In this document: one piece after another, positions 51,082 to 55,258 of the stretch
Layout of the letters: every line of letters begins with the position of its first letter
How positions within the stretch are numbered: position 1 is the first letter of the stretch
Assembly (NCBI RefSeq): GCF_001677475.2
Contig: NZ_CP015229.1
From: Escherichia coli
GTDB lineage: Bacteria; Pseudomonadota; Gammaproteobacteria; Enterobacterales; Enterobacteriaceae
Reading direction: 5' to 3' (one strand)
Length of the DNA: 64,000 nt
Made by a program: the position numbers and the translations under genes
Notes under the pieces: generated by a model
What the model was told of the DNA's origin: nothing
What the model saw: only the letters and a program-made list of their open reading frames with translations
Databases searched by the model: none

Positions 51082-51294
51082 TCATGAAAGGTAAACATTG
51101 GCAGCTGAAGGGCCACGCAGAGCATTTATCCGGCAAAATTCCACGCGTAATCCGGTGGTAATTTCTTCTGCATCGCGGAGATTGAGCGCTGAAACATGAA
51201 GCTGGACATCGATACGACCATCGGATGGGGTGATAAGACCCTTGCCGCTTTTGCCGTCAAAGGTTTTGACAATTCCTGTCATTTTACGGGACAA
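51082..51294 (-). CDS. cspF: Cold-shock-domain protein, CspF/CspH-like
   Basis: ORF track 70 aa; [37 protein letters not shown]... Confidence 0.8.
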
Positions 51295-51594
51295 AAAAAT
51301 TCCTTAATACTGATAACTTGGCGCACTATACACACGTTCCTGAAGAAAGCTATAGTTTTTTGATGGGGTTGAAGATGGCTGGATGTCTAAAATAAACATT
51401 GCTTCATATGTTCAACTATGCGTTAATGATTGCGTCGGTTTGAAGAACAGACGATATACGAAGTAGTTTACTAAAGCAGTTCTCATTTCAGGTGTTATTC
51501 ACTTATTCCTTCTTTGAGTCTCTCCAATTAAGTACGAAGTCGTTTCTGTTATACAAGCCATTTATGCCGAAAGGCTCAAGTTAAGGAATGTAGA

Positions 51595-51810
51595 ATGTCA
51601 AATAAAATGACTGGTTTAGTAAAATGGTTTAACGCTGATAAAGGTTTTGGCTTTATTTCTCCTGTTGATGGTAGTAAAGATGTGTTTGTGCATTTTTCTG
51701 CGATTCAGAATGATAATTTTCGAACCTTATTTGAAGGTCAAAAGGTTACCTTCTCTGTAGAGAGTGGTGCTAAAGGTCCTGCAGCAGCAAATGTCATAAT
51801 TACTGATTAA
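51595..51810 (+). CDS. cspB: Cold-shock protein, CspB-like
   Basis: ORF track 71 aa; [38 protein letters not shown]; divergent from cspF as in Qin. Confidence 0.85.
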
Positions 51811-52093
51811 AATTAATAGTTTGTCTGTATACGATAACGAAGAAGGCTGATGCCTGAGTGGAGATACAGACAGAGTGGTGAATATTGGATCTCTTTAATA
51901 AATAGTAAGGAGATCCAATACATGAAACAATGGCCAGCATATTTGGCAATAACTTAATCAGGAAAAGTATGCTAACCATTGTGGTGAAGTGCAGGTTTGC
52001 TGCATGAATAGTTTTACAGCAGAAGCTAACTGCTAGCATAGCAAAACAAAGTGCGTAAGTGGATGACTCCCACAAAAAGCACCACAATATTAA

Positions 52094-52116
52094 ACCCGCT
52101 CAGGCGGGTTTTTTAT
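52094..52116 (+). terminator. Intrinsic terminator after cspB
   Basis: acccgc-tcag-gcgggt followed by TTTTTT. Confidence 0.7.
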
Positions 52117-52173
52117 TATCTGCTTTAAATATGTTATTAAAATATAAAAAATACTTGTTACGAATAAAATCAA

Positions 52174-52344
52174 TCAAGCTACAGCTTTAAGATTTGTCTG
52201 GAATACTTTGTTGCAATGAGGGCAGATCAAAAGAGCACCTTTTTGTACTCTTGAAAAACTGTGTTCTGACTCTTGGGTGCAGTTTGGGCAGGAACATTTA
52301 ACGAGATAATTACGGCGTGATTTTGAGTCTTTACGTTCTGACAT
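52174..52344 (-). CDS. Hypothetical small zinc-ribbon protein
   Basis: ORF track 52174..52395; CSCPNC...CPHC cysteine pairs; start uncertain. Confidence 0.3.
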   Translation of the reverse strand: MSERKDSKSRRNYLVKCSCPNCTQESEHSFSRVQKGALLICPHCNKVFQTNLKAVA

Positions 52345-52562
52345 AGGCTTTTCCTGTATAAATGGCCGTATACAGTACACTAAATATGAAAACATATCTC
52401 GTATTATTATTTAATATATGATTTTCTTTTAAAATAATTACCCACATTTTTAATGTGTCTGTTTTTTAGCGCCGTTGAGAACAACGTTTGCTATAAAAAC
52501 TAACCCATAGACTCCGATCTTTTCAAACATATTGCACCATCTGTGTACATCGGGGTGAGGAT

Positions 52563-52778
52563 ATGAAATCAATGGATAAGTTAACAACAGGTATCGCCTA
52601 TGGCACATCGGCTGGTAATGCTGGTTTCTGGGCATTGCAGTTACTCGATAAAGTAACTCCGTCACAGTGGGCTGCAATCGGTGTGCTGGGTAGTCTGGTT
52701 TTTGGCCTGCTGACATATCTGACAAACCTTTATTTCAAGATTAAAGAAGACAGGCGTAAGGTTGCGAGAAGAGAGTAA
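52563..52778 (+). CDS. Phage holin (phage 21 S-type pinholin, EssQ/EssD-like) with dual-start motif
   Basis: ORF track 71 aa; [66 protein letters not shown]. Confidence 0.85.
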
Positions 52779-52782
52779 TCCA

Positions 52783-53334
52783 ATGACTCAAGACTATGAA
52801 CTGGTTGTGAAAGGAGTTCGCAATTTTGAGAATAAAGTGGCGGTAACTGTAGCCTTACGGGACAAAAAACACTTTGACGGTGAAATTTTTGACCTGGACA
52901 TCTCGCTGGACCGTGTTGAAGGTGCCGCGCTGGAGTTTTATGAGGCAGCAGCCAGAAGGAGCATCAGACAGGTCTTCCTGGATGTTGCTGCCGGGTTATG
53001 TGAAGGGGATGAGCAGTCGCCGGAAAAGCGCCCCATAATTTTAGAGGCGCAGAATGTGTGGATAACCTACAAAGGAAAGCTACCGGGAAGAATTACTGGT
53101 TCTCTGAAGACGCCACCGACGGCATTGCGGTCAGAAAAAGATGATATTGAATCGCCCATTGAAAAACTGGAGGGCAGCGTCGCTGATCTGAATAAAAAAT
53201 TGTCGGTGCTGATTCCTTCTGAAGATGAAAAAAAACGCCGCGATGAGCAGTTTGCGGCGTTTTACGATTATTGCATTGAAGTTACTCGCAGGAATTTTGT
53301 GAAGATTTTTGAGGAGGGTAAATCTCTTCAGTAA
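52783..53334 (+). CDS. Hypothetical protein inserted between holin and endolysin (183 aa)
   Basis: ORF track 52762..53334; ATG at 52783 just after holin stop; no recognised domain. Confidence 0.45.
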   Translation: MTQDYELVVKGVRNFENKVAVTVALRDKKHFDGEIFDLDISLDRVEGAALEFYEAAARRSIRQVFLDVAAGLCEGDEQSPEKRPIILEAQNVWITYKGKLPGRITGSLKTPPTALRSEKDDIESPIEKLEGSVADLNKKLSVLIPSEDEKKRRDEQFAAFYDYCIEVTRRNFVKIFEEGKSLQ

Positions 53335-53542
53335 GCTTATTGGCGGACGCTGCAATTAATTCAGGAAGGTCCGCAAGGTCATCTGTCAGTGGATATGATG
53401 AAAAATCGGCGGCAGTTCTGTTAAGAAGCGCTTTAACTAATTCCTTTTCCTTCTCCGGCAACAAGTTGATTAGAGCTACGACTGCTTGCCTGAGTGCGAT
53501 TAAATCAGCAAAAGTTTGTTTTGGTAGATTTGTGTAATCCAT
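53282..53542 (-). CDS. Hypothetical acidic protein (86 aa), convergent with and overlapping the preceding gene
   Basis: ORF track; ATG at top with GAGG RBS; 3' end overlaps 3' end of 52783..53334 by ~50 nt. Confidence 0.4.
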   Translation of the reverse strand: MDYTNLPKQTFADLIALRQAVVALINLLPEKEKELVKALLNRTAADFSSYPLTDDLADLPELIAASANKLTEEIYPPQKSSQNSCE

Positions 53543-53655
53543 AGTCGCCTCGGTGTTTATCAGATTGACATCCTCCTCCCGCCAGTGCCCATCACTGGTG
53601 AGGTAAGATTTAACATATCCGGGGATTTGAAGCCGATAAATCCTGATAAATATCC

Positions 53656-54189
53656 ATGAACGTAAAAATCAGATACAGCCTGTCGGCCGCTGTTCTGGCA
53701 CTGATTGCCGCCAGTGCTCCTGCCCCTGACATTCTCGATCAGTTTCTGGATGAAAAAGAGGGGAATCACACCACTGCATACCGCGATGGCTCCGGCATAT
53801 GGACCATCTGTCGGGGAGCAACGATGGTGGACGGTAAACCTGTTATTCCGGGAATGAAACTGTCGAAGGAAAAATGCGCCCAGGTTAACGCCATTGAGCG
53901 GGATAAGGCGCTGGCATGGGTGGAGCGCAATATAAAAGTTCCACTGACCGAGCCACAGAAAGCCGGTATCGCGTCATTCTGTCCCTATAACATTGGCCCT
54001 GGTAAGTGTTTTCCGTCGACGTTTTATAAGCGGCTTAATGCCGGTGATCGTAAAGGCGCATGCGAGGCGATTCGCTGGTGGATAAAGGACGGTGGACGTG
54101 ATTGCCGCATTCGTTCAAATAATTGTTACGGTCAGGTTATTCGTCGTGACCAGGAGAGTGCATTAACCTGCTGGGGGATAGAACAGTGA
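53656..54189 (+). CDS. Phage endolysin, glycoside hydrolase 24 lysozyme with N-terminal SAR segment
   Basis: ORF track 177 aa; [27 protein letters not shown] hydrophobic N-terminus; lysozyme core [20 protein letters not shown]. Confidence 0.85.
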
Positions 54190-54683
54190 ATCAGATATTC
54201 ACGGTGATTTTGCTCGTGTTGGTAGGATTTGTCGTAGGTAATGTCTGGAGCGACAGAGGATGGCAAAAAAAATGGGCGGAGCGTGATGCTGCCGAATTAT
54301 CTCAAGAGGTAAATGTCCAATTTGCTGCTCGAATAATTGAACAGGGGCGAACTATATCCCGTGATGAGGCTGTTAAAGATGCACAACAGAAAGCCGCTGA
54401 AATTTCTGCCAGGGCTGCTGATCTGTCTGATAGTGTTAACCAGCTGCGTGCCGAAGCAACAAAATATGCCATACGCCTTGACGCAGCGCAGCATACCGCA
54501 AATCTTGCCGCTGCCGTCAGAGGCAAAACAACCAAAGCCGCCGAAGGAATGCTCACCAACATGCTCGGAGATATTGCAGCAGAAGCTCAGCTTTATGCTG
54601 AAATTGCTGACAAACGCTACATCGCAGGAGTGACTTGTCAACGGATTTATGAATCTTTAAGAGATAAAAAATATCAGATGTAG
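54186..54683 (+). CDS. Rz-like i-spanin
   Basis: ORF track 165 aa; N-terminal [20 protein letters not shown] then coiled-coil; overlaps endolysin stop. Confidence 0.65.
54379..54633 (+). CDS. Rz1-like o-spanin lipoprotein embedded in +1 frame of Rz
   Basis: ORF track 54337..54633; lipobox LTSC, proline-rich mature part. Confidence 0.5.
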
Positions 54684-55045
54684 ATTAATATTAAATCGGA
54701 TTATTTTTAGCGCTGAATGTGAAATTTAAATAAAAAGGACTCTTCCATGAGTCAAAATCCTTGAAATCTTAAGGGTAAGATAAAAGGTCATTAGACAGAA
54801 TGACACGTTTTATTAATAAATAAAGCTATTGTTTCATTCGTGTGTTTTTCTTTACAAAAGTAATCCTTGCTATGGTTGGTTAATCATGCGTTAATGGTGT
54901 TCTGGTTTGTTACAAAATTATCTGAAGCAGTCATTGTTATAATTTTATTATTTGTACCTCTTGAGATTTCCTTGTTGGTTTTTCTCTCTGATATTTTTTT
55001 CGGACCATTCTGCCCAAGGGCTAACTTCTTCAAAAGGTAATAATG

Positions 55046-55258
55046 ATGTCTAACAAAATGACTGGTTTAGTGAAATGGTTTAACCCTGAAAAAGGTTTTG
55101 GTTTCATCACGCCGAAAGATGGTAGCAAAGATGTGTTTGTCCATTTCTCAGCTATTCAGAGCAACGATTTCAAAACGTTAACTGAGAATCAGGAAGTCGA
55201 ATTTGGTATTGAGAACGGACCTAAAGGCCCCGCGGCTGTTCATGTTGTGGCACTTTGA
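55046..55258 (+). CDS. cspI: Cold-shock protein, CspI-like
   Basis: ORF track 55043..55258; [45 protein letters not shown]. Confidence 0.85.

Follow-up and report, generated by a model that had tools for sequence, protein, structure and literature searches.

Lambdoid phages carry accessory ('moron') genes in recurrent slots of their late region, examples being stx, found between Q and S in the Stx phages, and bor, found after Rz in lambda. The cold-shock genes cspF, cspB and cspI of Escherichia coli K-12 (b1558, b1557 and b1552) and their position in the Qin prophage are likewise known and belong to textbook annotation; Qin itself, located at ydfJ-rspB, is a cryptic, 'grounded' prophage (PMC6379469). 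Here we describe a 64,000-nucleotide stretch of E. coli DNA (assembly GCF_001677475.2, contig NZ_CP015229.1; the whole stretch is referred to as the window), in which the interval 51082–55258 holds three intact open reading frames (ORFs) of 70–71 codons each, namely cspF, cspB and cspI in the same order and orientation as in Qin. It is very probable that these known genes are accessory units of the moron type, lodged where the late region of lambdoid phages usually carries its cargo. There are two such slots: the first, from the Q antiterminator to the holin, is filled by cspF and cspB, and the second, after the spanins, by cspI together with ynfQ, ynfN and gnsB. The likeness to stx and bor lies in cargo at the Q-to-holin and post-spanin positions with its own terminator and its own putative promoter. 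Unlike those toxin and serum-resistance genes, however, the cargo here is drawn from the cold-shock family.

Cold-shock genes and their prophage

The ORFs of the window were scanned against Pfam, PHROG and Rfam, with a cut-off of 27 bits for PF00313, the cold-shock domain (CSD). All three proteins consist of a single PF00313 domain of about 70 residues and all three match PHROG 729, 'cold shock protein':

51082–51294, - strand: cspF, 70 aa, TTG start; CSD E-value 2.8e-21, 75.6 bits
51595–51810, + strand: cspB, 71 aa; CSD E-value 8.4e-32, 109.3 bits
55046–55258, + strand: cspI, 70 aa; CSD E-value 1.7e-31, 108.3 bits

Alignment with the K-12 MG1655 proteins gave 69 of 70 identical residues for CspF (99%, the sole change being G58A), 69 of 71 for CspB (97%, with Y42F and I55V) and 70 of 70 for CspI. 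An earlier note, made from the DNA letters, had named three cold-shock-domain genes, and this identification is borne out by the PF00313 matches together with the 97–100% identity to the K-12 proteins; none of the three lacks cold-shock-domain homology. The TTG start of cspF is common to the window and K-12, and the annotation pipeline PGAP gives the names cspF, cspB and cspI correctly in genomes that are 99.9–100% identical. The Y/F and I/V variants of CspB are of the sort of polymorphism previously described for this protein (PMC6719143). In comparison with K-12, cspI contains nine synonymous and no non-synonymous codon changes, which argues for purifying selection. A T>G difference from K-12 also makes a second in-frame ATG at 55043, one codon before the cspI start (ATGATG, 55043–55048), and for this reason cspI begins at 55043 in the ORF list. 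A 71-residue form of CspI starting MMSNK is possible through the extra ATG, whilst PGAP and the K-12 annotation both place the start at 55046.

The RNP1 (KGFGFI) and RNP2 (VFVHF) motifs of CspB and CspI are exactly those of CspA, and both proteins carry the surface aromatic residues associated with them. CspF does not, its equivalent motifs being the degenerate SGKGLI and VQLHV. Judged from this alignment, CspF is an RNP-motif-degenerate member of the CspF/CspH clade, a separate, aromatic-poor group without known function (PMC6719143).

The genes of the late region follow the order Q, ynfS, cspF, cspB, ynfU, holin, ydfR, endolysin, spanins, cspI, ynfQ, ynfN and gnsB, and the components of a lambdoid lysis cassette downstream of Q, that is a holin, a lysozyme and an i-spanin with an embedded o-spanin, are all present. 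BLAST comparison with K-12 Qin shows collinearity from Q to gnsB at 89–96% DNA identity with two exceptions, described below, and ynfS, ynfU, ynfQ, ynfN and gnsB are common to both. The divergent cspF/cspB pair before the holin and cspI after the spanins, which had been likened to Qin, are therefore found as claimed. The prophage itself, in contrast, is not Qin. Where Qin sits at ydfJ-rspB, the window prophage apparently occupies the 5' end of prfC, since its left end adjoins yjjG and a 23-codon fragment (35133–35201) that we take to be the N-terminus of PrfC, with a tyrosine integrase next to it. Only the Q-to-gnsB late region is Qin-like, and from 57294 on the structural module differs from that of Qin. 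The window from 34500 to 64000 is collinear with, and 99.91% identical to, a prophage of E. coli M114. This type of prophage has an integrase (35428–36663), regulatory and replication genes, Q, lysis genes, terminase, portal, capsid and tail genes; on this gene content the window prophage is apparently complete and lambda-like.

The 5.5-kb module with all three csp genes is also present in sequenced phages. Its identity reaches 99.9% with Escherichia phage PhiR63_1 (PV340573) and 98.6% with Escherichia phage 2H10 (NC_049950), and phages HannyBb, PhiR42_1 and Tritos have it too. As these are phage genome records, which go beyond a prophage context, the description of the genes as phage-borne is directly supported. 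The left arm of PhiR63_1 is 99.8% identical to window positions 35196–57293, but its packaging/head region is unlike that of the window prophage beyond 57293, so that the latter is a mosaic with PhiR63_1. Phage 2H10 is without part of the Q-cspF insert, its match beginning at query position 104. Among the 286 phage records that match the module just five cover at least 80% of it, and many related phages have lysis genes without csp genes. Among E. coli strains the module is common: of 5426 complete genomes, 1384 carry at least 80% of it at a single location. These 'host' cold-shock genes consequently travel in sequenced, apparently complete lambdoid phages, and not just within a dead prophage.

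Leaders, promoters and terminators

The Rfam model of the cspA thermoregulator, RF01766, has a gathering score of 78 bits, and Rfam was searched over 48–58 kb of the window with E-values up to 1. Matches spanning the full RF01766 model (positions 1–428) were obtained at cspB (51434–51873, 159.4 bits, E-value 1.8e-42) and at cspI (54889–55304, 111.1 bits, E-value 2.3e-28). Because these scores are partly coding in origin, the leaders were also aligned with those of K-12 cspA, cspB, cspG and cspI. The alignment revealed a conserved -35 element, 17-nt spacer, TGn plus GTTAAT -10 element and GGTTTG start region, and likewise a conserved cold box, GCCGAAAGGC box, Shine-Dalgarno sequence and downstream box. 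The transcription start (+1) positions were transferred from cspA by homology. The elements are located as follows:

51399–51427, + strand: cspB promoter by cspA homology; -35 TTGCTT (51399–51404), 17-nt spacer, TGn plus -10 GTTAAT (51419–51427)
51435–51594, + strand: cspB leader, 160 nt, cspA-type, with +1 at about 51435
51441–51451, + strand: cold box in the cspB leader, TGAAGAACAGA
51566–51575, + strand: cspB upstream box, GCCGAAAGGC, from the alignment
51583–51587, + strand: cspB Shine-Dalgarno sequence
51607–51620, + strand: cspB downstream box, within the coding sequence
54867–54895, + strand: cspI promoter by homology; -35 TTGCTA, 17-nt spacer, TGn plus -10 GTTAAT
54902–55045, + strand: cspI leader, about 144 nt, cspA-type, with +1 at about 54902
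55012–55021, + strand: cspI upstream box, GCCCAAGGGC
51325–51330, - strand: candidate cspF -10 hexamer, TATAGT, about 30 nt from the TTG start

Against K-12, 2 of the 160 nucleotides of the cspB leader are changed. In the cspI leader 16 nt are deleted in the region of the cold box, which accounts for its shorter length. When the cspI leader was compared with K-12 without gaps, 65 mismatches were counted; these are an artefact of a 1-nt indel, and few differences are left in a gapped alignment. The homology-derived lengths of 160 nt and 144 nt agree with the published 160 nt for cspB and 145 nt for cspI (PMC6719143), and the cspI promoter is paired with the cspB promoter in a repeat family (D4).

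A long leader of the cspA class (145–160 nt) with its boxes is thus associated with cspB and cspI and not with cspF. The Rfam scan had no match at cspF and yielded no further RNA family that was credible, a single snoRNA match at an E-value of 0.79 being dismissed as chance. The divergent intergenic region between cspF and cspB is 300 bp long and is mostly taken up by the cspB promoter and leader. In an alignment of the upstream regions of cspF and cspH, TATAGT is the sole promoter-like element to have been kept, and its position would give cspF a leader of about 24 nt. The earlier proposal that every one of the three genes has a long 5' untranslated region consequently holds for cspB and cspI, with their RF01766 matches and leaders of about 160 and 144 nt, but fails for cspF, which has no match and an implied leader of about 24 nt. 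A thermosensing leader combined with intact RNA-binding motifs is therefore a property of only two of the three genes, cspB and cspI. With respect to the described cspA thermoregulator, the departures are the 16-nt deletion in the cspI leader, a 3' hairpin without a T-run at cspB and the unmatched cspF.

The csp units are bounded by three strong hairpins with a T-run, read as intrinsic terminators:

50766–50789, both strands: bidirectional intrinsic terminator, 10-pair stem, tail CTACTTTTTC
52092–52119, + strand: intrinsic terminator after cspB, hairpin 52092–52111, -15.4 kcal/mol, z -5.7, 282 nt past the stop
55466–55485, + strand: terminator of the cspI-ynfQ unit, GCTCC-TTCG-GGAGC (55466–55479) then T6, -12.4 kcal/mol

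On the - strand the first of these (-14.7 kcal/mol, z -6.3) terminates the cspF-ynfS unit and sits 293 nt beyond the cspF stop, past ynfS; on the + strand (-22.1 kcal/mol, z -7.4) it reads as a hairpin plus TTTTGTGCTTT. The hairpin nearer to cspB, at 51822–51872 (51 nt, -17.9 kcal/mol), is the one without a T-run, and the stretch of about 280 nt between the cspB stop and the terminator (51811–52091) is without an annotated gene. The hairpin at 55466–55485 was listed on the - strand by the terminator scan. All of the units' terminators fall 200–290 nt after the csp stops and none is found directly behind a csp gene; cspF-ynfS and cspI-ynfQ are probably bicistronic. The earlier attribution of a terminator to each csp gene is hence better transferred to the transcription units, each of which does end at a hairpin with a T-run, since ynfS intervenes for cspF and ynfQ for cspI, and since the cspF terminator serves both directions. 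As regards the hallmarks of a moron, the terminators are clear and the promoters of cspB and cspI are inferred by homology to cspA.

A TTGCAT-N17-TAAAAT element is located at 50692–50720, about 45 nt upstream of the bidirectional terminator. On the + strand the terminator could be a late-promoter-proximal, tR'-like terminator that is overridden by Q, and the segment 50692–50789 is a candidate for a late promoter with its promoter-proximal terminator. If this is true, Q-dependent late transcription would cross ynfS and cspF in antisense before reaching cspB.

Possible roles of the csp genes

As accessory cargo, cspB and cspI would each be expressed from a cspA-like sigma-70 promoter through a long cspA-type leader, of the kind that in K-12 keeps expression low at 37 °C and allows translation after a temperature downshift. 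CspB and CspI are canonical single-domain OB-fold proteins that would bind and melt single-stranded RNA or DNA and, as RNA chaperones and transcription antiterminators, may help the lysogen to adapt to cold and to long-term stationary phase. In this scheme cspF is a separate unit, transcribed divergently, whose leader is probably short and whose nucleic-acid-binding motifs have degenerated. Cold induction, chaperone activity and a benefit to the host are extrapolated to this prophage from the K-12 literature. There, the cspB and cspI orthologues are described as cold-inducible (PMC6719143, PMC12360218), and the cspB leader is reported to be controlled by temperature and by Rho-dependent termination, with feedback from Csp proteins (PMC12360218). 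When overexpressed, CspI acts like CspA on reporter transcripts (PMC11648934). Long-term stationary phase brings upregulation of cspB, cspF, cspI and ynfN, and in competition the cspB and cspI mutants lose whereas the cspF mutant does not (PMC7406224).

The post-spanin block of cspI, ynfQ and gnsB looks thematically cold-related. According to work cited in a preprint (bioRxiv 10.1101/2024.03.27.586906), overexpression of GnsB suppresses the cold-sensitive phenotype of a secG null mutation, besides leading to more unsaturated fatty acids, and the preprint with the work that it cites describes a gnsB clone that restored low-temperature growth of relA fadR mutants. Literature searches on ynfQ/ymcF and on csp genes as lambdoid morons returned nothing specific.

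Several points weigh against the genes being host-serving cold-shock cargo. The RF01766 model includes coding sequence, so that protein-coding conservation accounts for a part of the cspB and cspI scores, and the promoters and +1 positions of both genes were placed by homology. A generic sigma-70 scan of 48900–56300 found 20 sites against 20.6 expected from shuffled sequences and was discarded as evidence; it missed the cspA-type promoters, with their GTTAAT -10 element. Among the proteins, CspF is without six of the eight aromatic and histidine residues checked from the nucleic-acid-binding surface of CspA (W11T, F18K, F20L, F31Q, F34V and Y42A). Overexpression of CspF had no effect, including on CspA or CspD targets, and neither had overexpression of CspH or CspB, but the latter protein accumulated poorly (PMC11648934). 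Moreover, cspB and cspI share their orientation with the late operon, which makes a lytic role for the phage possible.

This last point leads to the alternative that the csp genes chiefly serve the phage. Situated between Q and terminase and oriented like the genes for holin, endolysin and spanins, cspB and cspI would be read by Q-modified RNA polymerase, and RNA melting and antitermination by their products would keep the late genes and lysis working in the cold outside the gut. The 98.6–99.9% identity of the module in sequenced phage genomes is also in keeping with this. Nevertheless it is an unlikely explanation, as each of these genes retains its own cspA-type promoter, leader and terminator, as cspF runs antisense to the late operon, and as cspB and cspI of the cryptic Qin are still upregulated and still matter in competition (PMC7406224; PMC6379469). 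A further idea, namely that a decaying prophage carries the genes along passively and that they do nothing at present for either phage or host, takes its support from the cryptic, grounded state of K-12 Qin (PMC6379469) and from CspF being without known function (PMC6719143). It is highly improbable and largely refuted: all three ORFs are intact, the substitutions in cspI are nine synonymous to none non-synonymous, the prophage is apparently complete, the module is present in sequenced phage genomes and, to at least 80%, in 1384 of 5426 E. coli genomes, and mutant phenotypes have been reported in K-12 (PMC7406224).

For cspF considered separately, the gene may act in a manner other than the CspA-like melting of nucleic acids, for instance by means of a diverged OB fold in a protein-protein role or through head-on transcription into late-operon read-through. 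The loss of the RNP1/RNP2 aromatics and the insensitivity of CspA or CspD targets to overexpressed CspF (PMC11648934) are consistent with such a role, as are the antisense orientation of cspF to the late operon, its share in the bidirectional terminator at a tR'-like position and the reappearance of the divergent CspF-type/CspB-type pair, as one unit, both at cspH/cspG and in phage PHB10. Such a role is quite unlikely all the same, given that the cspF knockout is without a phenotype in long-term stationary phase (PMC7406224). The accessory-cargo interpretation thus continues to be strongly preferred, with the term 'host-type stress regulators', which had been applied to all three genes, suiting CspB and CspI but not CspF, where the RNP aromatics are lost (PMC6719143, PMC11648934).

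The cspH-cspG locus and neighbouring features

A further comparison is provided by the core locus cspH-cspG-ymcF-ymcE-gnsA of K-12 (NC_000913.3, 1050546–1052400), which aligns to the window as a composite. Like the window, this locus has a divergent CspF-type/CspB-type pair. Unlike the prophage region it is chromosomal; the place of two phage csp genes is taken by a single one, there is no intervening lysis cassette, and ymcE stands where the phage has ynfN. From cspH through the intergenic region into the 5' part of cspG, the locus is 76% identical to the stretch of the window that runs from cspF across its intergenic region into the 5' part of cspB, whereas cspG-ymcF resembles cspI-ynfQ (75%) and gnsA resembles gnsB (73%). 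In a sliding comparison cspG has a chimeric look, resembling cspB between about -240 and +60 and cspI/ynfQ from about +80 onward. No DNA-level match was found between ymcE and ynfN, so the parallel is not gene-for-gene.

In the window the lysis cassette is bracketed by cspB (51595–51794) and cspI (55046–55245), which are direct repeats at a distance of 3451 bp. Their identity is 72% over 200 nt and increases to 83–90% in roughly the first 60 coding nucleotides. Recombination between cspB and cspI would delete the holin, endolysin and spanins yet keep the cold-shock cargo, and the bracketing would give a prophage a simple route to the loss of lysis whilst its cold-adaptation cargo stays in place. 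A synthetic cspB x cspI recombinant of 968 nt matches cspH-cspG-ymcF as a single piece in 5355 of the 5426 genomes, uninterrupted and with 90% coverage at about 76% identity. Recent high-identity cspB x cspI deletion products were not encountered in any of the 5426 E. coli genomes. On these alignments, cspG and cspH might tentatively be viewed as the domesticated remnant of a Qin-type late region that collapsed through an old cspB x cspI recombination. A limited literature search did not find this origin proposed for cspG/cspH, and it may already be published. The divergent pair of phage PHB10 occupies another slot, near the integrase.

The remaining genes of the late region are:

48214–48966, + strand: ydfT, Q antiterminator
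50938–51027, - strand: ynfS-like ORF, 29 aa, annotated by PGAP in the 99.9%-identical M114 prophage (16439–16528 there, at an offset of 34499 to window positions); ynfS is in the same place in K-12
52174–52344, - strand: ynfU, small zinc-ribbon protein, antisense to the late operon; Pfam YnfU E-value 4.7e-31
52563–52778, + strand: essQ, class II (P21 S-type) holin; PF04971 E-value 7.3e-34
52783–53334, + strand: ydfR-family gene (DUF1327), 183 aa; phrog_2091 over its full length
53282–53542, - strand: 86-aa ORF antisense to the lysis genes, annotated in M114; phrog_2572 E-value 4.4e-53
53656–54189, + strand: rrrQ, endolysin (phage lysozyme); PF00959 E-value 2.6e-24
54186–54683, + strand: rzpQ, i-spanin (DUF2514); PF10721 E-value 1.9e-38
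54379–54633, + strand: rzoQ, o-spanin lipoprotein in the +1 frame inside rzpQ, lipobox LTSC, ORF 54337–54633; same position in K-12
55269–55457, + strand: ynfQ, YmcF-like zinc-ribbon 'cold shock small protein', ATT start, beginning 10 nt after cspI; Pfam YmcF-like E-value 1.5e-32
55530–55760, + strand: ynfN, post-spanin accessory gene
55933–56106, + strand: gnsB, post-spanin accessory gene

The first exception to the collinearity with Qin is an AT-rich stretch of about 1.6 kb (49008–50630), which lies between Q and ynfS and is missing from K-12 Qin. It is flanked by two diverged copies of the last approximately 70 bp of the Q region (48938–49007 and 50631–50700), which by eye are roughly 75% alike, and it contains a terminator-like site (49074–49092) and, on the - strand, a small ORF with a hydrophobic C-terminus (50127–50312, phrog_11629). 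The second exception is a 657-bp segment, 52989–53645, in place of about 90 bp of K-12 sequence at the 3' end of ydfR. This segment lengthens the YdfR protein to 183 aa, compared with 103 aa in K-12, the C-terminal half being encoded within it, and the 86-aa antisense ORF (53282–53542), absent from K-12 Qin, comes with it. In identical genomes ydfR carries the PGAP label 'incomplete', even though PHROG contains the long form as a full-length member. A mosaic breakpoint is evident at 57293/57294, just before the gene for the terminase small subunit, where the matches to PhiR63_1, to E. coli strain A32 and to K-12 Qin all end.

No tRNA genes are found between Q and the holin. The sole tRNA genes of the window are three tandem copies of tRNA-Leu(CAG) at 31765–32087 on the - strand, a host cluster unrelated to the prophage. 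The window starts within hsdR, the gene for a type I restriction R subunit (1–777, 98.8% identical to the annotated gene of A32), and the following 1.4 kb or so (778–2193) is unmatched in that strain. Strain A32 is also without an 11.6-kb segment (5659–17269) that lies between btsT and tsr and represents a 4-hydroxyphenylacetate (hpa) catabolic cluster. Its genes encode HpaB, a flavin reductase, a LigB-type dioxygenase, an aldehyde dehydrogenase, an HpcH/HpaI aldolase, an MFS transporter and an AraC-type regulator.

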